This document shows positions 26,136 through 40,615 of a DNA stretch of 64,000 bases, piece after piece. Source of the DNA: a virus; IMG/VR virus record IMGVR_UViG_3300023179_000001, positions 1-64,000 of that record; one strand, given 5' to 3'. Position 1 is the stretch's first letter. Every line of letters starts with the position of its first letter. Made by a program: the position numbers and the translations under genes. A model generated the notes under the pieces. The model ran no database searches. It worked only from the letters and a program-made list of their open reading frames with translations, and was not told the origin of the DNA.

Positions 26136-27593
26136 TTATCCCAACGCTGGCTGTTTCAATCTGCCAATGTTCTTAATCTTTACCCAACCACGAGGTCGGA
26201 AAAGAATAGGAGTATTGTAGTACAACTGCATCCATCGGATGCTCGATGCTACGGTAGCTAGAGGGAATTTGAGCATCGGAGAAAGCTCACGAAGAGCTAA
26301 AACCGACTCATCCATCTGTCCGATATAAGCAACGCCCGCTCCTGGGAGGGTTTCGTTACCATCGAGTACGTTGGTTGTTGCACCAGCAGATGCGACTTCA
26401 GCCACAAGGTATTTTTTACCAGCAACACCGTCTTCAAGACGTGTGCGGTAAACTCTGTACCCTTGGGTTAAATCGTTACCTGATACGCTGCCACGAGTTA
26501 CGACGATCTTCACTTCTGAGTTTACGCTCGTCACAACTGCGTTAGCCGATCCTGCGGTAGCTGCCGATTCTCCCGAACGAGAGATTGCGGTTACTTCGTA
26601 TGCGTAGGTGCCATGCTCACCAGCTTGGAATCCACGGCTTGTGGACTTAGCTTGAACTGACACAACTGCGCTTGCAGGTGCGGTTGGTGCCATTGCATTG
26701 TCGGCTGCTGCTGGAGCAGTTTCGTCGACACGCAAGAACACGTCTGGACGAAGTTCTACAGTTCCACCAGGGGTTTTTACTTTGTCAGCAACAAAGCCAA
26801 CCATTGCATCAGCAGGAGTTACAGGAATTCCATAACGTCCTTTGCTGAAGAAGGCTTTGCTGAAATCGCTATGGGCCGTGAAAGGCAAATAGCAATGGGT
26901 TGGATACATATAGTTATCCAACAGAATTCTTGCGACTTCTGTGAAAACAGATTCGCTAAGAACATCGCCACGAAGATCAACAACGTGTTCTTCGGACACA
27001 GCAGGACGGCCATCACCAGCAGTGCTGGCATCGGCAATTCCTAGAGCGTGTTGACGATCAAGACCGTCAAAGCTTTCGGAGATGATGCTGCTGTTACCTT
27101 TGAACAGAGATTCTTCCATTCGTTGAAGCATCCATTTAGCTCCGTTTTTGGTTTCGAGAGCTACTACGTTTCCGTGAGCAGGTCGAACCAAGAGCATTGG
27201 ATGAGTGATTTCACGGGTTGTCCCCATGAATTTCACGAAGGCTGCCTTACGTTGATATTTGCTATCTTCGGTTCTAGGCAATCCACCTTCTTGAATAAAG
27301 AATCCACCACGTCCACCATAACTGGACAGTAGGTTGTACTCTTCAACAGTGTTGTATGCTTTTGTTTTTGGAATATCGTTATAAAGAACGATATTTTTTT
27401 CCATGAAGGACACGATTTTCAAAGTAGCATCTAAAGATTCTACTCGAAGTGCGCCTCCGTTTGATTGAGCAGCAGGATCGCTTGCGTATCCAGCACTCAG
27501 GGCTTTATTTAATTCAGCTACGGTCGTCTGATCGGAAACTCCGAACCCGTCCCCGTGGCCTTCGAATTGCTTAGGATCAAGTGTAGGTATCAT
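26136..27593 (-). CDS. Major capsid protein (SPO1/Twort-like)
   Basis: LNKALSAGY...GGALRVESLD, YNDIPKTKAYNTVEEY, LRELSPMLKFPLA, WVKIKNIG. Confidence 0.95.
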   Translation of the reverse strand: MIPTLDPKQFEGHGDGFGVSDQTTVAELNKALSAGYASDPAAQSNGGALRVESLDATLKIVSFMEKNIVLYNDIPKTKAYNTVEEYNLLSSYGGRGGFFIQEGGLPRTEDSKYQRKAAFVKFMGTTREITHPMLLVRPAHGNVVALETKNGAKWMLQRMEESLFKGNSSIISESFDGLDRQHALGIADASTAGDGRPAVSEEHVVDLRGDVLSESVFTEVARILLDNYMYPTHCYLPFTAHSDFSKAFFSKGRYGIPVTPADAMVGFVADKVKTPGGTVELRPDVFLRVDETAPAAADNAMAPTAPASAVVSVQAKSTSRGFQAGEHGTYAYEVTAISRSGESAATAGSANAVVTSVNSEVKIVVTRGSVSGNDLTQGYRVYRTRLEDGVAGKKYLVAEVASAGATTNVLDGNETLPGAGVAYIGQMDESVLALRELSPMLKFPLATVASSIRWMQLYYNTPILFRPRGWVKIKNIGRLKQPALG

Positions 27594-28448: not shown

Positions 28449-28664
28449 TCACAGTTTAAGTTCAATATCTTTAAGGTTTTCAACCAAAGATCCATAATCT
28501 TCGGCATCAACACCTTCGTCTGCGTCCAACTTTGCGGTGAGATCTCTCAAGGCTTGAGCGATTTCATCGAGCTTGGACATCACTGCTGCCATCTGCTTCG
28601 CTGGGGCATCATGTAAAACCTTCTGCCCTAGTTCGGCTTCAGACAATCTTCCTAGTTTTGTCAT
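28449..28664 (-). CDS. Small head-module protein
   Basis: AGGAGG RBS; LTAKLDADEGV motif. Confidence 0.65.
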   Translation of the reverse strand: MTKLGRLSEAELGQKVLHDAPAKQMAAVMSKLDEIAQALRDLTAKLDADEGVDAEDYGSLVENLKDIELKL

Positions 28665-29476
28665 GTTGCCTCCTTTTTAATAAAAAGTTTTGAAACGAGT
28701 AGCGCAGCGATCTCGTCAGAGAAGTCTGGCCTTCTTTCCAAAACAAACTCCATTGATTTTAGAAGATCGTTAAATTTTAACGCATCCTCTAAAGCCTTTT
28801 TCATCGCCTTCTTTCTCTCATCCATTACCTTCTTGGCTTTGGAATCAAGAGACTCTGTGCGAAGAGCACCACCGCCACTCTGCGTTGCAGGTGATACGCT
28901 ATAACCTGCTGCCATTGCTTTTTCTGCGATGTCTGGCTCTGAGAAAGATTTGCTTAAAAGCTCCCAAGAGCAATCTGTGTTCACAGGGCAGTTGGTGATA
29001 GCAACATTTCTGATTTTAGCTTTTTCGATTGTTTTATCTTCTCTGCGAATTACTTTGCCTTCGATAGAGAAGCCTAATTTTCTGTTTGGAACTGTAGAAA
29101 GTGCTTTAGCAAGTTCCCAAATAGCATCTGCTCTTGAGGTTCCTTTTAAAATATATCCTTCGCAAGTCCAACCTGCCACTCCTTTAAGCTTTGGGCTCCA
29201 TTCGTGAAGAGAAGCGTGGTACTCAGCTTTTTCTGGATAACCAACAATAGCTGATGTGGCTTGTGAGTGATTGTCGTTAAAATGTCCGTGGGTAAGGAAT
29301 TCGTCGAAATCAAGGCCATCTGCTTTTACGATTTCGCCTTGTCGATCTTTGCGGCTGGTGGACATGATTCCAGAGATTTTTCTGGAATTGTGGGCATCTT
29401 CTGATTTTTCAATAAAAGCGACTTCGCTCAACCAAACACGGAAATCGTTTTCACCAATGAAGAAATTTCTATCCAT
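28661..29476 (-). CDS. Prohead maturation protease
   Basis: GIMSTSRKDRQGE, FNDNH, LGFSIEG, VAITNCPVN (HK97/herpes-type His and Ser motifs). Confidence 0.92.
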   Translation of the reverse strand: MDRNFFIGENDFRVWLSEVAFIEKSEDAHNSRKISGIMSTSRKDRQGEIVKADGLDFDEFLTHGHFNDNHSQATSAIVGYPEKAEYHASLHEWSPKLKGVAGWTCEGYILKGTSRADAIWELAKALSTVPNRKLGFSIEGKVIRREDKTIEKAKIRNVAITNCPVNTDCSWELLSKSFSEPDIAEKAMAAGYSVSPATQSGGGALRTESLDSKAKKVMDERKKAMKKALEDALKFNDLLKSMEFVLERRPDFSDEIAALLVSKLFIKKEAT

Positions 29477-29835: not shown

Positions 29836-31832
29836 ACACTCTTTTTTAACATTTTAATTTTTTCAATCAATTTTGATTTTTGTAACGCCAATCCCCTTTT
29901 ACCAAGGTAGGCTGGCGCATCTAAATCCACAACCAATGAAAAAGATTTTTTAGCTGGCTTCTTTTGTTCTTCAATCGCTGCGTCAATAAATGGAACCAAA
30001 GCGACTGGATCGATAATCTTGTTTGCCAATAATTGACTCATACCCTTATCGAGCGATTTGAAAATTTCTTCATGAGTAAGGCCAACTTCTGATAATTTTG
30101 ACTTTGGAATATCAATCAACTGGCTATCACCCCTCATTTGAACATATTTTCTAAGAGCAGCTTTGGCTATTCCTTCTTGATATTCTGCCTGAGAGCCGAG
30201 GTTTAAGCTCTGATCTTGGTTGAACCTTGCAGCTTGGGTTTGATAAGGATCTTTATCTCCAGATTTTTTAACGATGTAATTCCATGCTGGCATCAGATGA
30301 ATGGGCATCCATCCAGGTGGATACGCTGGCTTTCCATCTGCTTTCTTTACTGATGCGTCAAAAACTTCTTTTGGCACTGCGGTTCTGGTTGTACCAGCCC
30401 ATTCAGGTTTTTCACCGCCCTGCTCTGACCAACTTTTCAAATCTCCCCAAGTAGGCATTGGGGGAGGAGCAGAAGGATTTGCTTGATGCCAAGAATCTTT
30501 TACAAAAGGTTTTAGCCTAGCATATTGCTTTGCTGCATAACCTCTTTTAAATCTCTCAACTTCAATGTCTATTGGTTCGTTTCTAATAATCTCATCTAGA
30601 CCTACGAAAGTGCCTCTTTCAAATTCTTCAGAAATATTAGAAAGCCCCTGAACTCTTCTGCCAGAAATTTCTTTATATTTTTGTAGAATTGTCTCTTCAT
30701 TTAAGGTCGATCCAGCTTGTTCAATCGCCTGTAAAAGATGTTCTACAATTTGTTTTCTTGCTGGCTTTACATCGTTTTTGATTCTGGAAAATATTTCTTT
30801 GGCTCTTGCCAGATAAGCATTATTGCCAGAAGCCTGAGCCTCAACCATTCTGGTGACTGGGGCATCTGCTTGAACAAAATCTTCATTTGGCTGGGCCTGA
30901 GCTAACGCAGTATGAGAACGGGATCTTGGCCTTGATTCTTGTCGGATTATATCAGCCGCTTGTTGTGCTCTTTGTCTTGAAGCTTCGGCCACTGGTGCCG
31001 AAGTGGGCTCGGCTTGTGCTTGTGGAGATGTTAAATCTATTCCAAGCTCTTTTAGTTGTCTTAAAATGTCCTGCTCTTCGGATTGAGCTTGTGGCTGGGC
31101 TTGCGGCTGTGGCTCTGGCCGTGTCGCAGAAAGAATGGGAGTCGAAGATTCTGTTATTTTTCCAGCGTCTTTAAATTCTTTAAATGCTTGTTTTGCAGCT
31201 TCGTCGGCATCCACTCCACTCATATAGATTTCTTTTGCCCGTTGCGACAAAGGATTTGTTTGAAGGATGCTGATCTGATGCCCGTTCAGCTTTTGTTGCA
31301 AAACCGACTCTATGGTTCTTTTAATTCTTGAATTAAAAACACGCTCTGTTGTTGCTGCTGCTGGTGCTGGTGTTGCTGCTGCTGGTCTAGCGGCTCTTGT
31401 TCTTCTGGCAGGTCTAGCAGGAGCAGGTACACTGGGAGCAGGGGCGCTGGACTCTTCTTTGGACTGTTCTTCTACGGTATGAGCAGTTTGAATTTCATGC
31501 TCATCAAATTGATGGCCTCTTCTATGAGCATTATTGAAAATGTGCTTATTGTGAGTTTGGTCAAGATCTTCTCTGGACACACCAGCATGGGCAAGCATTT
31601 CGCCTCTGGTCATCTGATGATGCCCTTTAGCCTTAGCCTGAATCAATCGGGTCAAATGCTCAATCTTTGCCTGTAAGTGCGTTTGAGGAGATGCAGGATC
31701 ATCAGAAGATACAAGCCTTCCGTCTGGAAGCTTGTACCAATATTTATAATTGCCTGGGCTGCCTGTTCTCTTGATGTACTTGTGAGATCTTGCTTTAAAC
31801 AAGTCTGAATCAATTTCCAAAATTTCTTTCAT
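29832..31832 (-). CDS. Putative internal head/ejection protein
   Basis: N-terminal SDLFKARSHKYIKR motif shared with the 1895-aa protein; A/P-rich linkers; C-terminal KKSFSLVV. Confidence 0.6.
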   Translation of the reverse strand: MKEILEIDSDLFKARSHKYIKRTGSPGNYKYWYKLPDGRLVSSDDPASPQTHLQAKIEHLTRLIQAKAKGHHQMTRGEMLAHAGVSREDLDQTHNKHIFNNAHRRGHQFDEHEIQTAHTVEEQSKEESSAPAPSVPAPARPARRTRAARPAAATPAPAAATTERVFNSRIKRTIESVLQQKLNGHQISILQTNPLSQRAKEIYMSGVDADEAAKQAFKEFKDAGKITESSTPILSATRPEPQPQAQPQAQSEEQDILRQLKELGIDLTSPQAQAEPTSAPVAEASRQRAQQAADIIRQESRPRSRSHTALAQAQPNEDFVQADAPVTRMVEAQASGNNAYLARAKEIFSRIKNDVKPARKQIVEHLLQAIEQAGSTLNEETILQKYKEISGRRVQGLSNISEEFERGTFVGLDEIIRNEPIDIEVERFKRGYAAKQYARLKPFVKDSWHQANPSAPPPMPTWGDLKSWSEQGGEKPEWAGTTRTAVPKEVFDASVKKADGKPAYPPGWMPIHLMPAWNYIVKKSGDKDPYQTQAARFNQDQSLNLGSQAEYQEGIAKAALRKYVQMRGDSQLIDIPKSKLSEVGLTHEEIFKSLDKGMSQLLANKIIDPVALVPFIDAAIEEQKKPAKKSFSLVVDLDAPAYLGKRGLALQKSKLIEKIKMLKKSV

Positions 31833-31838
31833 ACACCC

Positions 31839-32753
31839 TCAATATTCAAAAACGTGGTCGCAACAATCTATATCGGAACCTAGACTTTTTCTTAAACCAG
31901 TTATTTTAGCTTGTTTCCCTGTATATGATAACTCTGCCTCACCGTCATCGTTAATAACAAAATCATATCCTTTAGGAATAAACATAAGCTGGCACTGGCA
32001 ATAAGGATGCAGTGGGCCAATCGTAGGAAGCCAATTTGCTACTTTTCTGCCGTAATTATTATCTGCTAAATCCGACAATCTGAAAACCTTTGGAGTTACT
32101 CTGTCTGATTTCATGTACGCAGCGAAACAGTGTTTGCATCCATCTGGATTAGGTCTTTTATAAACCAAAGCATCTCTGCCATGGGTTTCTCTGATTTCAT
32201 TAGCGATTCCGTTTTGGATTGCAGAAGTGACTTCGGTGGATGCGACTCGGTGCCAATCTCTGTTTCTATCGTCTATCGCATCAAACAATGCGGTCTTTAA
32301 TTCTGACACTGTTTTTCTCTGAGCTATTGATGTTGCGACCTGCTCTTGGACGGCCCTCACTGCGCTCATGCTTGATCTGGCTACGGCTCCTCGGACATCA
32401 CGCACCATATCATCTGACAATCCTTGAATGTACTGTCCTGCGTGTTCTTTGGCCCATCGGATAGCCTGTTCTTCAACACGAGTGGTTGGAAGCATCTTAG
32501 ATGCTCGTTTCAGAATTTCGTCAAACGGGATACCTCTGGCTTCATTTCGTTTAAACAAAGCAACGATTTTCCCAAGAGTATAAGAATCCCCAACCATATT
32601 TCTGGTATTTTGTCTTAGAAGTCCTGCGGCTTTTAATGCTCGAATCTCTGCATCCGACAGGGCTTGTGATCCCAAGGCTTCAAACGTAAATGAACTGAAT
32701 CTGCGACGTATGATGTCTTCAATCTGTTTTAGCTGCTCTTTTGTCAGCATCAA
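31839..32753 (-). CDS. Head morphogenesis protein (MuF/SPP1 gp7 family)
   Basis: RDWHRVASTEV, GCKHC, PLHPYCQC. Confidence 0.85.
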   Translation of the reverse strand: MMLTKEQLKQIEDIIRRRFSSFTFEALGSQALSDAEIRALKAAGLLRQNTRNMVGDSYTLGKIVALFKRNEARGIPFDEILKRASKMLPTTRVEEQAIRWAKEHAGQYIQGLSDDMVRDVRGAVARSSMSAVRAVQEQVATSIAQRKTVSELKTALFDAIDDRNRDWHRVASTEVTSAIQNGIANEIRETHGRDALVYKRPNPDGCKHCFAAYMKSDRVTPKVFRLSDLADNNYGRKVANWLPTIGPLHPYCQCQLMFIPKGYDFVINDDGEAELSYTGKQAKITGLRKSLGSDIDCCDHVFEY

Positions 32754-32922: not shown

Positions 32923-35900
32923 TTAAAACGGTTGTGGCTGAGGCTGCGCTTGAGTTGTTGGTTGTTGTAACTCTCTTCTAGCATTTAACAAAGAATTTTT
33001 CATAGCTCTTGTAATAGGTGCATTTGCCAAAAAATATTCAAAGTTAGGCTGAGTCATACCCAAAACAGATCGAACCCTACGCTTAGACATTACAATTCTT
33101 CTTTCACCTCTTCTCCACCAACTGATAGCTCTTTGTGCATGAGCCACTGCCGCCTGTTGATCTGGTGGAAGCTGTGGGGTTGGGGCTGGGGGAGGCTCAA
33201 CTCGTCGTGAACCAGATGCAGCCTGTCCCATCACATTGGAATATTCAGGCCCAAAGACCTTTGCTGCGGCTTCTTTCAATTCTACAAACTTCTCTGCAAA
33301 ACGAGATGCTATAGAATCTCTGTTTGAATCCCAGATTCCACGCCAACCCTTGCCCAACATAAACTTTTTACCCAAGTGAACCAACATTCGATAAGACTTT
33401 CCTTCGCTTATTTCTTGCTCTGTAAGCGGATACTCGCCTTCTACGCCATTTAAAGATTTGGTTGTTATTTGCTGATGAGAAAGTGGCATCCTTTCTTCTG
33501 AAGTAAAAATGTACTTTTTACCATTTGAAAACGCAGAAAAATGACAAGGCTCTTTAAACAGAGCAAGCTCGCTGGGTGTTAAACTTATTCCATAAGTAGA
33601 TAAAAAGTTTTTAAAAGAGTTTCTGTAGCCTGTAGCGTCAGAGTCGTGTTCAAAAGAAAAGCCCTGATTCGCCCATGTGTATCCACCCACATTTAAAGCA
33701 GCCGTAACCGTAACCGTTCCACCGTTCGGTTGTGCCTTCATCAACTTTCTTTGACCAACATTTATTAAATTCCCCAGTCTGGCTCCGTTTCTATGGGTTG
33801 TGTTAACCTTCAAATAATCATTGTGAATGTGTGGCCTTCCACCTCTACGATTCCAAGATCTTCGCCATTCGTTTGTAATTACTTCTCCGTTTTCTGTTTT
33901 GGCTTCGAGATCAAACCACAAACTACCTTCTGAGAACTGCAATCCTATAATTTTTACAGTTATTCCCTGAGCAGAAAAATCATAAGGCCAATCCTCTTTT
34001 CTCAGAGATCTGCCAAAAATAGATCTAATGCTTGCGTCCAATTCCCTAACCTGTTCTGCATTTAATCTAGTTCTTGAAATTTTAGAAATAAAATGAGCCA
34101 TAGAACCATGAAGCTCTGCTAGTGCTATTCGCTCTTGTTTTTTTCTTTCTTTTTCTTCTCTTTCTATTCTTTCTAGATGTTCTTGTATTTTTGGAACTTC
34201 AAAGTTATCGCCCGTTCTAGCTTGTAACAGGGCCGTTGAATAACCTGTAGGTAGCTGGTTGGCCTCTTCAAGTGCCTTTACCGCAGAAGTAAATCCAAGA
34301 TTGCCGTAGCCTCTGGCATCTCTGGCTAGGCTGTTTTGGTGTGTCAATCCCGAATGGATATTGTCCACTACCTTCATTTGTTCATGCAGCTTTTCTAAAA
34401 CACCCTTTATTGAATTGGCAGACTCTAATTGAGACATTACAGAATCAAGAGTAACTCCAGCAGAATTCAATCTTTTAAACTGCTCTGTATGTCTGTAGGT
34501 GGGGTTATCAAGATAACCAAAAATCTTTTCATTTAAAGATTGTTTTATATGTTTAATAAATTGGGCTTTCTTTTCTGGAGATTCAAAAGGCTTTTCAGAT
34601 TGATCTTGTGGCGGTGGTGGAGGAATTTCTGGTTGTAAATCTTCTTCTTGGAGAATTGGTATCCCCATGTTTTCCAGCGTTTCTTTAGCTCGCTTCCCAG
34701 ATTCCGTGTCGGCAAACCCTGTTGCAAGTCTCTGGAGTAAGTCTATCTTTTCGTGTGGGACTTCTTCCATTTCATCTATTATTTGCCTTGCCCTTGCGTT
34801 GCCCATCTCAGCCAATTTTTTAATTTTATTGAAAGCATTTTCGTCTATGGTTTTGGGCTTTTGACTTGGCTCATGATAAATATAGATCCAACGGCTTCCT
34901 CTACGATATTTCCGCAGATACTTGTGGGTTCTGGCCTTGAACAAATCCGAAGGAATAAAAAAGATTTCGTTTTTGTTAAGAATAGAATCAATTACAAAAA
35001 CAGCATCGCTTTTATGAAAAGACGCACGAATGTCGTCTAATGAAACTGGCTTTTCCATCCACTCTCTTTCCTCTTTGGTTAGCTGTTTTCCTTCGTTCAT
35101 TTTTCTATTTAATTCATATTTCTTTTTTACAATTTCTGACAAATTCACATCCCAATCGCTGTTTTGAGCGGTAATCCAGTAAACATTTACGTTGTTTCTT
35201 TGTCCAACACGATGGGCTCTGTCTTCTGCTTGTCTGACATCTGCCGCAGTCCAAGGCAGATCGTTAAAAACCACTTTGTCTGCTCGTGTTAAAGTCGCTC
35301 CTACTGCTAGGGATTGTCTTGTAGAAACAAAAACCCTTTTAGTTGAAGTTTCGTTTTGAAACTCCTCTTTAGCCTTTTCTCTGGCATCATCTGACATTTG
35401 ACCATGATGCAATATAGCGACATCTCCAAGCTCTTCTTTTAGCTTTTTGGCAGCATCTAGCGATTCTGTAAAAACCAAAACATTTGAATCAGAAGAGTCT
35501 ATAACTTCTTGCACAAAGTCTTTTGTGGCAGAGGTTTTTGCTATTGCTGCGACAACCCTGGCCGCACTCATTTCTCCGATGTCGGTTGGCAATCGAGGCA
35601 TACCCGAAACTGGTACTTCGGCAATTTGGGTTGTTTTTTCTGGTAAATCAGTAAGCACTTTCTTTTTCTGTCTAGCCAGATAAACACCGTTCTTTTTAAG
35701 CTTATTCCAAACCCCACCAATAGTTCCAAACTTCAAACCAAACCTAGAAAACAAGCCAGGTCTAATAATTTCTATTTGAGTATGAAGCTCCTCTTTTTTG
35801 TTTTTGATTGCCGTACCAGATAAAAGCATCTTGTGGGCAAACATGGGAGCCATCTCTGAAATCAGTTTTGTTGCTTTGGCTTTTGGATTTTTTATTCGAT

Positions 35901-38610
35901 GCGACTCATCAACAATAATAGCATCAAACCCAGCCGCTTCAATGGCTGGTCTAAACTTTTCTAAGGATTCGTAATTAACGGTAGCGATATTTACGTTTCT
36001 TAAATCAGGTGCTCCGTGTTTTAAATCTGCTGCGATTAGCTCTTTGGATTTGTTTTGAAAGTGTCCTGGGAAAAACTTTTCGGCCTCTTTAATCCAAGTC
36101 CTTCTGACAACCTTGGGACAAACAACCAAAACACGTTTGTTTTTACTTGCAACGAAAGCAAGAGATTGAAGCGTTTTTCCAAGCCCCATCTCATCGCCAA
36201 TCAGAGCATTACCATCGGCTGCTTCTAAAAATCTGACCGCCTCGTTTTGGTAGGGGAATAGTTTAAATTGGGGATCGAGCTTTTCAGAAACATGAGGAAT
36301 AGGCTTTCTTAGCTCTGCCTGTCTTTCTTCTTCTCTTCTGACCGCCTCATCAAAGCCTTCTGTGACCACTTCCCAATCTGGGAATCTTTCTTTGATTTTT
36401 TGAACGGCCTCTTGAGCCAGTTCTATTTCATAGGTTTCACGAGACTTTTCTGTGGGATTGTATTCCATGATCCCACTGATTTCCCCACCCCTGTTGGAGA
36501 AAAAGTTTACTAGCTTTGAATCGTATGGATGATAAAAACTTATCTTGTTGTCTGAGGATACCCTCACCCTCACAACCTTGCTGCTATCTCTGCCTTCGGA
36601 CTCTGGCAGTGGATCTGGTATGTGACTTAAAGATACTCCAAGTTCGCCCAAGCGTTGCTGATACTTTTCCCAATCAAATGTTTTTTCAACATCTCTTGGA
36701 ATTACCCAAACGAAATTACCATTTTCGTCGTTTCCACCCTTGAGCCTCATATCTCTATGAAGTTGGACATACTTCTCAAAATTATTTCTATTTAGTCTGC
36801 CATCAGACTTGAGAGGTAATTGAATAGTTTTGTAGGTACGATGCCTTTCTGGGACAACCATGTGAATGGTCGGATCTGAAAGCCCAGTATGCTCGTACTC
36901 TTCTTCTCCAAAATGTTGTGTCAACTGCCTTTTGTATTTTTTTAAGATGTTTCTAACTAAATTAAGAGATTGCGTCTGTATCTCTGGAGGCTGAAGCTTA
37001 ATTCTATCAAAAACGACCTTCCATCTTTGCTTGTCTAGCTTATTAAAACCAATTTCATTTAACTCTCTTGCATCGTCTTTGGAATTTAGGTGCTCACCCA
37101 TATCCAACAACTGCTCCATGCTATCATTGTCGCCATAGCGATGCGCTTCTTTTCCGTCCCTATTGTAGACGTAAACGGTTCTGCTCCCTTTTTGGTATTT
37201 CCTAATATAAAGATGATTTGGTCTGTCGGCCTTCTGCAAATACTCAAAATAGGTTGGATAATGAGCTTCAACTTCAAAGATAATTGATTTCTTAGTGTCC
37301 GAGTCCCAGCCTTCTGGTTGATACTCTGAAAAAACTTTTAAGAATTCTTTTTTGGACTCTGAATAGCCCATGGGCATTTGGCCTTTGTGCTTACTAGACA
37401 TTTGTTTAACAAACTTGTCTGCGTCTTCAAAGGAATCAAACTCTTTGATTTCAAGGTTAACTTTCTTTGGAGATCTAACAACAACAAAGTGCTTAATCTT
37501 ACCTTTTTCCTTTGTTTCAAAGCTTTCAAAGTTTTTCTTTTGTGCTCTCTCTTCTTTGGAGATTTTAGAGAAATCTTTTTTATTAAGCCGTTCTATGTCT
37601 TTCCAAGGAAATTTAATTCCATTGTCAGTTAGAATCTTTGGCTCTTTGGGTCTTTTTTCTGGTGAGTCCTGCTCTCCGGTGTCCAGCCCGTACAAATAAG
37701 CAGATAGTTCTGTAAGATATTGCGAAACTTCTTGGTTTCTTGGCTTCCCGTCCTCGCCCTTTCCAAACTCCTTAGCAAGCTCTTTGCTTGGCTTATAAAT
37801 AGTGTCGTGGGTAAAACCAGAAAATACCTGCTGCCTGTGTGTTTTGATTTGAAGTTCTGAAATCTTGCCAGAACTGGTTTTAAAAAGAACATGAATAGCC
37901 CTGTAGCCATCGGGCCTTGGCTTAGATGAAGAATCTTCTATCTCTACAATCTGAAAACTTTTTTTCATGTGCTCAAGAACCGATTTCTGATTTTCTATTG
38001 AATCAGATAGCGAGCGAGCACCAATAACATCGGTAGCTGTATTTAAAGATCTTTCTTTCAATCTGCCGTGCATCTTCTCATGCAGGGACAGTTTGTCTTT
38101 TAAACGATTTCCAAAATGCGATGCACCTGCCGCTTTTAGGGCAAAGCCCAGACCTTGTAATTCAACGTAATCGGGTTTGAACTTCTCAATAAAAAGTTCA
38201 ACATCTTTGACGCTGGTTTCTTTCCCAGGTTTTACAAAGCCTTCGTTTTCTGGTGGTGGAGGGCCAAGTCCGTTAGAAGGTCTGCCGTAATCTGCTGGTG
38301 TACCGCCCTCTTTTAAATGCTCTTCTCTTTTCTTGTGCTCTTCGGATGCTGTGGATTCTAGCTTGGCAGATAAAGCTTGTTCTATCTTTTTGATTTTTTC
38401 TTCAAAGTTTATCTTTTTTGTGGGCCTCTTTTGGCTCTGCTTTTCGTTTGTATTTTTTTTGCCAGTTGAGATGGGTCGCCAATCGCCTTCGGCAATTTTC
38501 TTATATCGCTGACCATTCCACTCGTGGACTGTGCCTATGGGTAAGCTGGCCTTTAGAATTAAATCTAAATCAAAGGATTTTACCCTTTTTTCTGTGATAA
38601 AAAAATTCAT
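32923..38610 (-). CDS. 1895-aa polyvalent protein: RelA/SpoT synthetase + HARP-SNF2 helicase + GNAT-like domain
   Basis: RLKDKLSLHEK, DVIGAR, GYRAIH, ELQIKT, HDTIYK (aa ~165-275); GDEMGLGKT, DESH, LSGT, QAEDRAHRVGQ (SNF2); GGYTWANQGFSF (GNAT-like, less certain). Confidence 0.85.
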   Translation of the reverse strand: MNFFITEKRVKSFDLDLILKASLPIGTVHEWNGQRYKKIAEGDWRPISTGKKNTNEKQSQKRPTKKINFEEKIKKIEQALSAKLESTASEEHKKREEHLKEGGTPADYGRPSNGLGPPPPENEGFVKPGKETSVKDVELFIEKFKPDYVELQGLGFALKAAGASHFGNRLKDKLSLHEKMHGRLKERSLNTATDVIGARSLSDSIENQKSVLEHMKKSFQIVEIEDSSSKPRPDGYRAIHVLFKTSSGKISELQIKTHRQQVFSGFTHDTIYKPSKELAKEFGKGEDGKPRNQEVSQYLTELSAYLYGLDTGEQDSPEKRPKEPKILTDNGIKFPWKDIERLNKKDFSKISKEERAQKKNFESFETKEKGKIKHFVVVRSPKKVNLEIKEFDSFEDADKFVKQMSSKHKGQMPMGYSESKKEFLKVFSEYQPEGWDSDTKKSIIFEVEAHYPTYFEYLQKADRPNHLYIRKYQKGSRTVYVYNRDGKEAHRYGDNDSMEQLLDMGEHLNSKDDARELNEIGFNKLDKQRWKVVFDRIKLQPPEIQTQSLNLVRNILKKYKRQLTQHFGEEEYEHTGLSDPTIHMVVPERHRTYKTIQLPLKSDGRLNRNNFEKYVQLHRDMRLKGGNDENGNFVWVIPRDVEKTFDWEKYQQRLGELGVSLSHIPDPLPESEGRDSSKVVRVRVSSDNKISFYHPYDSKLVNFFSNRGGEISGIMEYNPTEKSRETYEIELAQEAVQKIKERFPDWEVVTEGFDEAVRREEERQAELRKPIPHVSEKLDPQFKLFPYQNEAVRFLEAADGNALIGDEMGLGKTLQSLAFVASKNKRVLVVCPKVVRRTWIKEAEKFFPGHFQNKSKELIAADLKHGAPDLRNVNIATVNYESLEKFRPAIEAAGFDAIIVDESHRIKNPKAKATKLISEMAPMFAHKMLLSGTAIKNKKEELHTQIEIIRPGLFSRFGLKFGTIGGVWNKLKKNGVYLARQKKKVLTDLPEKTTQIAEVPVSGMPRLPTDIGEMSAARVVAAIAKTSATKDFVQEVIDSSDSNVLVFTESLDAAKKLKEELGDVAILHHGQMSDDAREKAKEEFQNETSTKRVFVSTRQSLAVGATLTRADKVVFNDLPWTAADVRQAEDRAHRVGQRNNVNVYWITAQNSDWDVNLSEIVKKKYELNRKMNEGKQLTKEEREWMEKPVSLDDIRASFHKSDAVFVIDSILNKNEIFFIPSDLFKARTHKYLRKYRRGSRWIYIYHEPSQKPKTIDENAFNKIKKLAEMGNARARQIIDEMEEVPHEKIDLLQRLATGFADTESGKRAKETLENMGIPILQEEDLQPEIPPPPPQDQSEKPFESPEKKAQFIKHIKQSLNEKIFGYLDNPTYRHTEQFKRLNSAGVTLDSVMSQLESANSIKGVLEKLHEQMKVVDNIHSGLTHQNSLARDARGYGNLGFTSAVKALEEANQLPTGYSTALLQARTGDNFEVPKIQEHLERIEREEKERKKQERIALAELHGSMAHFISKISRTRLNAEQVRELDASIRSIFGRSLRKEDWPYDFSAQGITVKIIGLQFSEGSLWFDLEAKTENGEVITNEWRRSWNRRGGRPHIHNDYLKVNTTHRNGARLGNLINVGQRKLMKAQPNGGTVTVTAALNVGGYTWANQGFSFEHDSDATGYRNSFKNFLSTYGISLTPSELALFKEPCHFSAFSNGKKYIFTSEERMPLSHQQITTKSLNGVEGEYPLTEQEISEGKSYRMLVHLGKKFMLGKGWRGIWDSNRDSIASRFAEKFVELKEAAAKVFGPEYSNVMGQAASGSRRVEPPPAPTPQLPPDQQAAVAHAQRAISWWRRGERRIVMSKRRVRSVLGMTQPNFEYFLANAPITRAMKNSLLNARRELQQPTTQAQPQPQPF

Positions 38611-38849
38611 ATATCTTTAATAATTTCAGATATTTCTACCTTGATTTCATCAAGCATTTTCTTAAATCTTTTATCCCAATACTCCATGATTTCGTGTTGT
38701 GCTTTAAAATAGGGAGGTCGTTCTTGACCAAAGATCTTCTGGCCCTTGACTCTGACCTCAACATCCAACTTGTCCTTGGCTAAAGCTTTAATTAGCTCTT
38801 CTCGTTTGGCATCTAGTTCGTCCTTCGTGCCCTCGATGGTAAGCCTCAT
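38607..38849 (-). CDS. Hypothetical protein
   Basis: GAGG RBS; ATGA overlaps at both ends. Confidence 0.7.
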   Translation of the reverse strand: MRLTIEGTKDELDAKREELIKALAKDKLDVEVRVKGQKIFGQERPPYFKAQHEIMEYWDKRFKKMLDEIKVEISEIIKDI

Positions 38850-40615
38850 AGCTTTATTTCCTCAAAAAAACGGGCACTTTGACTCTTTTGAGTCTGACCT
38901 TTGGCTTGAGATTCTAGCTTATCTAACTCGGCTTGCAGTTCTTCAACGCTCATGTTCTCGTAGTCTGGCTCTTGCGTGTCGCCCTGAGCTTGAACTTCTG
39001 GATTGTCCCCAGATGACATTCCTGGTTGTCCTGCTAGCTGCCCTAGTGGTGTCAAACCGTCTTGTCCCATCGCCCCTTCTGGCTGCGGCATCTGACTTTG
39101 AATAAAGTTGATAAGCGAAGAATCTAAAACCACGTCGCCTGGGTTTTTGATTTTCTCAAAATCAGGCAAAGGCTTCATATCGTGCTCGGCTCTGATTTCA
39201 TTGATAGTCTTAAAGTTTTTGACCATCTGGACGCATTTATCTAAGTCGTCTTTTTCAGTAGAGGCATTTAAACCTACAAACTCCAGTTCAAAGTTTGGAT
39301 CAAGTCTCCAGATAATATAGTTGTTTAGCAAACTCTCAACGTGAGCGAGTAGCGGTCTTAGTCCTTTATCTTTTGAGTATTCTAATCTTTCACCTTGGTT
39401 TCCGCTTCCAAGACCGCCTGAGCCTGAGTTTTGTCCTGAGCCTTGCTTAGAAATATCAAAACCAATTTCGATAGGATCAATCATGAACACACCGCAGATG
39501 GTCTTGATACAGTATTCAAGCCACTTGCCGAATTCCATCTCTCTGTTGGTTGAGTGGAGAGATTGCCAATTCATTTTTCCATCTTTGCCAAGAGCCATGA
39601 TTGGGGTTCGCCAAGCGTTATTTACCCCAGTGACCTGTGCGTACCACTGTCTTCTAAACGCTTCTAATTGATCGGGTGGAACCATCCCCTCGAAAGTTAA
39701 AATCCCCTTTATTGAAGAGCCTTGAGAGAAGAATTTTCGGTTGTATGTTTCAGCGTTCATATGTGACGTGATAGTTGTCACAAGCATTTCAATTTCGCTA
39801 AATCCATAACCTAGAGCAGTCATATCTGTTCTAGGATTTCTCACTCCAAAAGCCATTTCCCATTCATCGTAAACGTGTCGTTTTACTCCGTTGATAACCT
39901 GGCAGAATTTAGGATGCTTTGGTTTAAACTCTTTAAAGTATTTATCTGCACCATAGTCGATTACGAATTGGGATTCTTTGGTGCTTTGGTTGTAGTCGAA
40001 TCTCTCAACCATTTCCTTTTTGTCTGGGATGATTCGTATAGTCGAAGCATCGACCGCAAGGAATGAATAGGGTTTACCATCGTTTCGGGGGACGATTTCA
40101 AAGTTGACCTGATCGAAGGTGAGACTGTCTCTAGTGATTTTTCTTAGGAAAGTCTCAAAATCATCACGCCTTTTCATCTCTGGAGTGTCCTCAAAGTTTT
40201 CTGGAACCCCACAGTTTTGAATGAACTGTTCTATTTCTTTGATGCGTTTTTCTTCGGCCTTGGACGGGCTTTTATCATCATCTCTAAGTTTGATTTTAAA
40301 ACCCAATGCGTATTTGTCTTTGGCTACTCGTTTGAATGTAGCGACCTGATTGGTTCGTGTCTGAATGATTGATGCGACAATAGGATCTGCGTATGTGATT
40401 TGTCGGCATTTGTCGTAGGAAAGGATTGAATACTTTTCTTTATATCCAAACGAGGTTTGGCCGTAGGCCAGTGGATCCACTAGGGACGATTTGGAATCGT
40501 AGGCTTGCCTGTCTGGAGTGAGAAGACCTGCCTTCATCAACTCATAGCGAATCGGTAGGATTTCCTCTTTTACAAACTCTACCGATTTGGTTAGTGCGTC
40601 TTTTACGATTCCCAT
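38846..40615 (-). CDS. Portal protein (herelle-like)
   Basis: IIQTRTNQV, RDSLTFDQVNFE, VRNPRTD..GYGFSEIE, FFSQG, DPIEIGF, SKDKGLRPLL, TINEIR. Confidence 0.95.
   Translation of the reverse strand: MGIVKDALTKSVEFVKEEILPIRYELMKAGLLTPDRQAYDSKSSLVDPLAYGQTSFGYKEKYSILSYDKCRQITYADPIVASIIQTRTNQVATFKRVAKDKYALGFKIKLRDDDKSPSKAEEKRIKEIEQFIQNCGVPENFEDTPEMKRRDDFETFLRKITRDSLTFDQVNFEIVPRNDGKPYSFLAVDASTIRIIPDKKEMVERFDYNQSTKESQFVIDYGADKYFKEFKPKHPKFCQVINGVKRHVYDEWEMAFGVRNPRTDMTALGYGFSEIEMLVTTITSHMNAETYNRKFFSQGSSIKGILTFEGMVPPDQLEAFRRQWYAQVTGVNNAWRTPIMALGKDGKMNWQSLHSTNREMEFGKWLEYCIKTICGVFMIDPIEIGFDISKQGSGQNSGSGGLGSGNQGERLEYSKDKGLRPLLAHVESLLNNYIIWRLDPNFELEFVGLNASTEKDDLDKCVQMVKNFKTINEIRAEHDMKPLPDFEKIKNPGDVVLDSSLINFIQSQMPQPEGAMGQDGLTPLGQLAGQPGMSSGDNPEVQAQGDTQEPDYENMSVEELQAELDKLESQAKGQTQKSQSARFFEEIKL

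Follow-up and report, generated by a model that had tools for sequence, protein, structure and literature searches.

The stretch of DNA analysed here (the window) covers positions 1 to 64,000 of the IMG/VR virus record IMGVR_UViG_3300023179_000001, the complete genome (103,921 bp, with direct terminal repeats) of an uncultured phage. On its minus strand, where all the features of the window described below lie, it contains a single open reading frame (ORF) of 1,895 amino acids (aa), P0001 (32923-38610), which carries a RelA/SpoT module. In Pfam searches P0001 matched RelA_SpoT at aa 169-276, SNF2-rel_dom at aa 787-1002 (E 1.8e-25) and Helicase_C at aa 1033-1136 (E 3.1e-14). The RelA/SpoT part is the first module of a three-module polyprotein and not a separate gene; a SNF2-family helicase core (aa 787-1136, 35203..36252; PHROG 62 DNA helicase, E 1e-77) forms part of module 2. 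An earlier note, made from the sequence alone, had described positions 37225-38120 as a RelA/SpoT synthetase with a CapRel-like tail and a YPTYF motif. That interval corresponds to aa 164-462, while the conserved module runs from about aa 113 to about aa 437, and the motifs quoted in that note (the core synthetase set, HFVVVRS and YPTYF) are all present in one frame of P0001.

The core of the module, a toxSYNTH-like RelA/SpoT pyrophosphokinase domain, spans aa 130-312 (37675..38223), as delimited by Pfam, profile comparison with the PDB, AlphaFold2 (AF2) modelling, VIA structural alignment and hhalign. The Pfam match (PF04607, aa 169-276) scored 49.4 bits against a cut-off of 27 (E 6.3e-13), and a six-frame search of the genome returned a RelA_SpoT match at 54.4 bits. 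All in one frame, the core contains R169-x-K171-xxx-S175-xxx-K179, D194-xx-G197-x-R199, G235-Y236, E252-x-Q254-I-x-T257 and H268-xxx-Y272-K273, and when 22 family members were aligned G235, Y236, R237, H240, E252, Q254, T257 and K273 were invariant. Judged by these residues the core appears to be a catalytically intact synthetase, and pyrophosphate transfer is its predicted activity. In the PDB the 22-member family profile matched RelP (6.9e-14), RelQ (1e-11), RelA (3.6e-11), FaRel2 (5.5e-10) and CapRel (2.7e-5), always within the catalytic core only, and hhalign paired the core with that of CapRelSJ46 (Prob 93%), placing R169 opposite R79, R199 opposite R116 and Y236 opposite Y155. In the AF2 model of aa 130-480 (predicted template modelling score, pTM, 0.80) the core and the tail that follows it both had predicted local distance difference test (pLDDT) values above 90. 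VIA-align superposed this model on RelQ (5ded, Z 14.3 over 175 residues), RelP (Z 14.0) and Tas1 (Z 10.9); for CapRel the Z was 14.2, with 206 residues aligned between positions 1-304 of the model and 22-357 of the chain. Furthermore, CapRel (7ztb_A) was the top PDB match of the whole-module model in Foldseek (E 4.3e-11, 334 columns), with a high root mean square deviation (rmsd), as would be expected if the domains are oriented differently. The Pfam match, the RelP profile match and the alignment to RelQ confirm the synthetase identity that had been read from the motifs.

After the core comes an anchor-like segment with the conserved pattern RP..P.IL..GI.FPW, followed by a variable linker (aa 313-372, 37495..37674; delimited from alignments A2 and A3). 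FPW is conserved in both alignments, and the linker has low pLDDT and is missing where the tail is a separate gene. The tail itself (aa 373-437, 37300..37494) is a pZFD-like antitoxin domain, as judged from the AF2 topology, a structure search and complex prediction. It begins with KHFVVVRS (aa 373-380) and adopts a strand-strand-helix-strand-helix topology with pLDDT of about 90, both in the module model and in a tail-only model of aa 318-445. When the tail-only model was compared with 48,161 representative PDB chains (without Foldseek), rank 1 was ATfaRel2 (8pu3_A), an antitoxin that superposed on 55 of the 74 residues (Z 4.5, rmsd 1.8 A) through its chain positions 0-56, a span that takes in Y51xxY54, and rank 7 was the corresponding part of CapRel (residues 285-366, Z 3.8). 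These are, to our knowledge, the only two toxSAS-antitoxin folds in that library, and it is unlikely that both predicted likenesses reached the top seven by chance. In predicted structure the CapRel comparison holds at the level of the whole module, where CapRel was the top match, and at that of its tail. The modelling supports a tail that is CapRel-like in architecture, with sequence homology to either known antitoxin not demonstrable. The part of the earlier note that called the tail CapRel-like therefore stands for predicted structure and docking mode, which resemble CapRel and ATfaRel2, and fails for tail sequence, where no similarity was seen. As a separate observation, the tail gives consistent sub-threshold matches to Pfam DUF1033 (E 0.005-0.03), at 37276-37515 in the window and at L005:6587-6826 and L006:8685-8924 in two related viral contigs; DUF1033 may be a related small fold.

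Near the end of the tail lies the motif F427-S-E-Y430 (37321..37332), which conservation, models and contacts point to as the predicted neutralisation motif, equivalent to the YXXY of known systems. In alignment A3 the conservation of F427 and Y430 is 90% or more and E429 does not vary, and in both models FSEY forms a short helical turn after the last helix. A helical YXXY turn has likewise been described for the neutralising state (PMC9712102, PMC11782079). In the structural alignments Y51/Y54 of ATfaRel2 and Y352/Y355 of CapRel end opposite F427/Y430 or within about 3 residues of them. Complex prediction was run with the core (aa 130-345) and the tail (aa 370-437) as partners, using alignments built for this analysis, alongside 3 controls. 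The core-tail pair scored an ipSAE of 0.88 against 0.01 for the best control. Among solved complexes 58 of 80 attained this mark, as against 2 of 110 mismatched pairs; the runs agreed in at least 93% of contacts, with partner pLDDT of at least 89. Docking was judged from the contact list, in which residues 165-172 (β1, with R169), 199-201 (R199) and 258-269 of the core face residues 410-418 (β3) and 425-430 (FSEY) of the tail. In the solved FaRel2:ATfaRel2 complex the sheet is extended from β1 to β3 and aromatics are inserted between two adenine-coordinating arginines (PMC11782079), and the same closed-state geometry has been proposed for CapRel (PMC9712102). From the models, the predicted lock motif is FSEY, docking on the ATP site at R169/R199, and not YPTYF.

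The wider family supports the limits of the module. Searched exhaustively with HMMER, 1.84 billion representatives yielded 396 matches, and about 30 clusters share a module of about 310 residues (P0001 aa ~125-437) across which the synthetase motifs are conserved. Its parts follow a fixed order, consisting of a PPPPEN..FVKPG lead-in, the synthetase core, a long helix, the RP..P.IL..GI.FPW segment, the variable linker and the small domain, whose consensus is K.F.VVR ... EF.SF..A..F ... P.GY..SK.EFL..FSEY. In P0001 the lead-in, at aa 113-129 (38224..38274), marks the start of the conserved module, and N113, P117-P120 and F125-G129 are invariant among the four long homologues of alignment A1. At the other end, the proteins of many relatives stop soon after FSEY (5 residues beyond it in L005 and 7 in L006), and ten representative proteins end 163-186 residues past the ExQ motif, FSEY lying at +175-178 in P0001; the natural module boundary should therefore be at about aa 435-441. 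A megablast of the P0001 gene against 50,697 phage records found no match, and the only tblastn match of the RelA part in the phage collection was gene 6 of the thaumarchaeal Nitrososphaera provirus Pro-Nvie1 (L001:5813-6445), a RelA/SpoT-like domain that corresponds to the core only (29% identity over 160 residues) and that also lies directly after a portal gene. In four related viral contigs (L005-L008) the module again sits among terminase, portal, protease and capsid genes, with varying positions and fusion partners. In L005, L006 and L007 it is the C-terminus of proteins of 581-1,036 aa encoded between a sigma-like gene and the portal gene, and in L008 it lies ahead of the protease, scaffold and capsid genes. 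The partners include SNF2 in P0001, a methylase-like piece in L006 and NUDIX in the homologues P0002 and P0004. NUDIX hydrolase domains were seen beside or near the RelA/SpoT module in P0002, P0004 and L006:12873-15998, and such partners could mean product turnover or immunity.

In addition to these fused forms, the family includes two-gene forms. Two viral contigs, L009 of 355 kb and L010 of 78 kb, have a synthetase ORF that ends just past the FPW region, and their tail is a separate ORF of 70-73 aa with FTEY (L009:7626-8793; L010:7590-8851). The junction between the two reads TAA-GAAA-ATG in L009 and is an overlapping ATGA in L010, an arrangement from which we take the tail gene to be translationally coupled to the synthetase. 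Five further clusters of tail-less synthetases stop at the same point. The only matches of a word-index search with the 70-aa split antitoxin were three small, nearly identical proteins; such proteins are called as genes in metagenomes. The L009 and L010 pairs apparently lie outside recognisable head modules, and PHROGs identified just an aminotransferase and a DNA ligase among their neighbours. Since split and fused forms are both present, the family mirrors FaRel2:ATfaRel2, which is a pair, and CapRel, which is a fusion.

Comparison with these two systems shows how far the likeness goes. CapRelSJ46 (PDB 7ZTB, PMC9712102) has the same order of parts as the P0001 module, namely core, anchor helices, a domain of three-stranded sheet and helix, and an aromatic-x-x-Tyr turn near the C-terminus, and its core has two ATP-coordinating arginines and a G-loop tyrosine, as in P0001. 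It differs in its motif, which is Y-x-x-Y where P0001 has F-x-E-Y, and in being a free-standing defence gene, whereas the P0001 module is part of a 1,895-aa polyprotein of the head region. The predicted P0001 interface matches the solved FaRel2:ATfaRel2 complex (PDB 8PU3) as described (PMC11782079), and the FaRel2 genes form a toxin-then-small-antitoxin pair, as do those of the L009 and L010 relatives. In P0001, by contrast, the antitoxin is fused in cis, and the terminal element of ATfaRel2 is circularly permuted when compared with CapRel-type tails.

The surroundings of P0001 place it in the head module of a myovirus, where the earlier note had also located it. This assignment follows from the terminase, portal, MuF-like, protease, capsid and tail sheath genes around it, and P0001 itself is a multi-enzyme protein of that module. 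On the coding strand P0001 is preceded by the large terminase, a sigma-like factor, a 530-aa protein, the portal (38846..40615; PHROG 12, E 1.1e-54) and an 80-aa ORF (38607-38849) whose stop overlaps the P0001 start codon (ATGA). It is followed by a 304-aa gene for a MuF/SPP1 gp7-like head morphogenesis protein (31839..32753), a 666-aa ORF, the prohead protease, a scaffold-like gene, the major capsid protein and the tail sheath. The MuF-like gene, directly downstream, was identified by an ESM Atlas feature search, in which 25 of the 30 nearest named clusters of its product were Phage_Mu_F (score 0.95, 176-182 shared features). Phage-type polyvalent proteins have RelA/SpoT and SWI2/SNF2 among their listed domains, and a survey of this class predicts their packaging and delivery (Iyer 2017, PMC5512222). 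Given its position between the portal and the MuF-like gene and its SNF2 helicase, P0001 is a phage polyvalent protein, a member of a class already known to include RelA/SpoT domains. As is usual in that class, unrelated effector domains are joined in one giant polypeptide, its gene neighbours those for portal and MuF in a phage with portal-terminase packaging, and domains are shuffled among relatives (PMC5512222). The P0001 modules differ in being separated by a repeated tag of the K-S / LxKA / HKYIRKY type, and a RelA/SpoT module with its own antitoxin-type domain was not found in the passages of that survey that were consulted (PMC5512222). A packaged, host-directed enzyme, as the earlier note had imagined, would fit this class (PMC5512222).

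A second, more recent parallel is provided by the MuF polymorphic toxins Apk2, which are MuF-linked prophage RelA/SpoT toxins making (p)ppApp (Paulet et al. 2025, PMC12226406). Like P0001, these place a RelA/SpoT-type pyrophosphokinase in the head-morphogenesis region of a phage, linked to MuF. In Apk2, however, MuF itself ends in the toxin as its C-terminal domain, which separate immunity proteins neutralise, whereas the virus studied here encodes MuF in a gene of its own downstream, has the synthetase at the N-terminal end of P0001 and presumably provides immunity in cis; no separate immunity gene was identified.

The tag that separates the modules consists of K-S, a hydrophobic run, h-D-L-h-K-A and then H-K-Y-h-R-K..G..W.Y.Y, the last part being a basic/aromatic hairpin motif in copy 1. 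Motif comparison located copy 1 at aa 10-47 (38470..38583), opening the RelA module. Copy 2, at aa 442-484 (37159..37287), opens the SNF2 module, has pLDDT below 50 and contains YPTYF, which lies at aa 451-455 (37246-37260), one residue off the numbering implied in the earlier note; Y454-F455 is the aromatic pair of the tag. Copy 3 (aa 1201-1250, 34861-35010) aligns with copy 2, and a further copy at the N-terminus of the 666-aa ORF (31713-31832) aligns with the tags of P0001. The tag is also found in P0002-P0005, and most homologues have it ahead of their RelA module. K-S with a hydrophobic run behind it was seen repeatedly at module borders, and again in the scaffold-like protein, in the protease and in the 666-aa protein. 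The K441-S442 dipeptide (37285..37290) is the putative junction and cleavage site between modules 1 and 2, given where relatives end and how K-S recurs. We regard the recurring tag as a candidate capsid-address and cleavage signal. Separately, the scaffold-like protein and the protease have K-S-F-type sites, as do the 666-aa ORF at its C-terminus and the portal at its N-terminus, and in relatives GGPGSG linkers come after the same junctions.

Taken together, these data suggest that the first cargo module of the polyvalent protein is probably, with some room for doubt, a RelA/SpoT pyrophosphokinase self-locked by a C-terminal antitoxin-type domain. The tail would fold back on the enzyme, extend the central sheet along β1 and set the F427-x-E-Y430 turn against R169 and R199. 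Arginines of this type hold the adenine of the donor ATP, and with the FSEY turn over them the enzyme would be made in a self-locked state, harmless while the phage still needs the translation of the cell for its late proteins. The tag at the start of each module could then serve to load the polyprotein into the procapsid. The prohead protease (28661..29476; PHROG 1028 head maturation protease, E 9e-53), the candidate processing enzyme, could cut it at the K|S junctions to give a RelA, an SNF2 and a C-terminal piece, which would enter the next host together with the ejected DNA. After cutting, the RelA piece (about aa 12-441) would keep its lock, so a trigger would have to open it in that host. 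As for what the enzyme modifies, tRNA 3'-CCA ends are mildly favoured by analogy because blocking of the ATP site by a pZFD has been reported as the mode of neutralising translation-targeting toxSAS (PMC11782079); synthesis of (p)ppApp or (p)ppGpp is possible, and the question of substrate is independent of the lock.

The earlier note had instead taken YPTYF for a CapRel-like YXXY lock in the active site, to be removed during head maturation by a prohead-protease cut at K441|S442. YPTYF agrees in four of five letters with the YPNYF at aa 352-356 of CapRelSJ46, which comes from phage SJ46, and K441-S442 does stand between enzyme and motif. The motif is not conserved, being replaced by a different string in P0005, which is 76% identical, and absent from all other homologues; it lies in a segment (aa 443-480) with pLDDT below 50 that is unstructured and undocked in the AF2 model, and it aligns with the tag that opens the SNF2 module. 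Relatives end 5-7 residues after FSEY, which puts YPTYF 15-20 residues beyond the natural C-terminus of related proteins, and by structural offsets it would fall beyond the C-terminus of CapRel, in which the position of Y352-x-x-Y355 corresponds to F427-x-E-Y430. We therefore regard the likeness to YPNYF as coincidental and this lock as very improbable. FSEY lies upstream of the putative cut site, so cleavage at K441|S442 would leave the lock attached and the proposed switch by head maturation loses its basis. YPTYF as a second, redundant lock was also considered and rejected for its non-conservation. A rather unlikely alternative to the self-locked enzyme is an ordinary small alarmone synthetase used for host reprogramming, making (p)ppGpp as RelQ and RelP do or (p)ppApp as the MuF toxins Apk2 do, whose tail would be a targeting, oligomerisation or packaging domain and no lock. 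The best sequence matches of the core are indeed RelP and RelQ, the MuF-linked RelA/SpoT toxins of prophages make (p)ppApp (PMC12226406), alarmone synthesis was proposed for polyvalent RelA/SpoT domains by Iyer et al. (PMC5512222), and NUDIX domains, possible nucleotide hydrolases, are fused in the P0002, P0004 and L006 polyproteins. It sits less well with a tail that is predicted to dock over the ATP donor site in the geometry of a solved toxSAS-antitoxin pair, or with the occurrence of the tail as a coupled downstream small gene in the classic toxin-antitoxin layout.

Alternatively, the module could be a phage-borne defence system, locked until the protein of a competing phage binds the tail, that excludes superinfecting phages. 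The architecture is that of fused CapRel, CapRelSJ46 is encoded by phage SJ46 and CapRel by a prophage, and the two-gene forms of L009 and L010 are located away from any recognisable head module. We consider this improbable, as a defence gene is expected to be separate and expressed early or in lysogeny, whereas the module is in frame within a 1,895-aa ORF of the late region between portal and MuF, shares its tags with head-module proteins and is again placed among terminase, portal, protease and capsid genes in four related contigs. Also unlikely, to our judgement, is a reading in which the tail doubles as a handle of the cargo on the interior of its own capsid or scaffold, loading the module and holding it open or closed, with CapRel-type capsid-sensing defences of bacteria descending from such head-cargo modules or having donated to them. 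In a variant of it, the delivered self-locked enzyme may be freed only by a specific protein of the host or of a rival phage, and would be an injected, triggerable toxSAS.

Several observations weigh against the self-locked cargo enzyme that we favour. The core is by sequence nearer to the housekeeping RelP and RelQ (7e-14 and 1e-11) than to FaRel2 (6e-10) or CapRel (3e-5). The structural scores of the tail are low (Z 4.5 and 3.8, every row being under 5) and have little meaning by themselves, and the assignment of its fold leans on rank and context within predicted models. Foldseek with the tail-only model gave no match at E <= 0.001, CapRel being outside its top 50; hhalign of the family tail profile against CapRel 236-373 was not significant (E 0.2, Prob 0.3%), and phmmer of the tail against the PDB gave chance matches only, with no similarity to ATfaRel2 or CapRel. 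Because the FaRel2:ATfaRel2 complex has already been solved, the pass of the core-tail pair may be model memory of it, and it indicates likeness rather than binding. Furthermore, the metallopeptidase processing domain that is common in polyvalent proteins was not found in Pfam and NCBIfam scans of P0001, and an injected enzyme that remains locked needs a trigger.

RelA/SpoT toxins, pZFD antitoxins and phage polyvalent cargo are each known separately, and P0001 appears to combine them. The phage appears to carry a CapRel-style self-locked enzyme as a module of a presumed head-packaged polyprotein, with relatives in fused and two-gene forms. If this is true, the family would offer a natural series of split, fused and embedded forms for the evolution of neutralisation of toxSAS in cis and in trans, and protection of the late translation of the phage itself would be a concrete reason for an in-cis lock. 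It would also connect defence proteins that sense capsids with the head cargo of phages in a way that can be tested. The corrected motif assignment makes F427 and Y430, rather than YPTYF, the residues of interest for mutagenesis.

Lastly, some features of the region lie outside the RelA/SpoT module. Pfam and NCBIfam scans gave nothing above threshold for aa 1-168, 290-780 and 1220-1895 of P0001. Its C-terminal third matches no family; for the C-terminal module (aa ~1500-1810; 32926-34110) the nearest Atlas clusters were unnamed bacterial proteins, and one of these clusters, with Acetyltransf_1 in 20% of its members, gives a weak GNAT lead only. Pfam and PHROGs gave no match for the MuF-like, 666-aa, scaffold-like and 80-aa ORFs, and a search for tRNA genes found none. 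The MuF-like protein has a C..C ... HP.C.C signature close to its C-terminus. The major capsid protein (26136-27593) is about 40% identical to the capsid proteins of SPO1-like phages (Herelleviridae). Its N-terminal peptide (..SAGYASDPAAQSNGGALRVESLD) is repeated in the C-terminal part of the prohead protease (..AAGYSVSPATQSGGGALRTESLD), and the two proteins cross-match in PHROGs.

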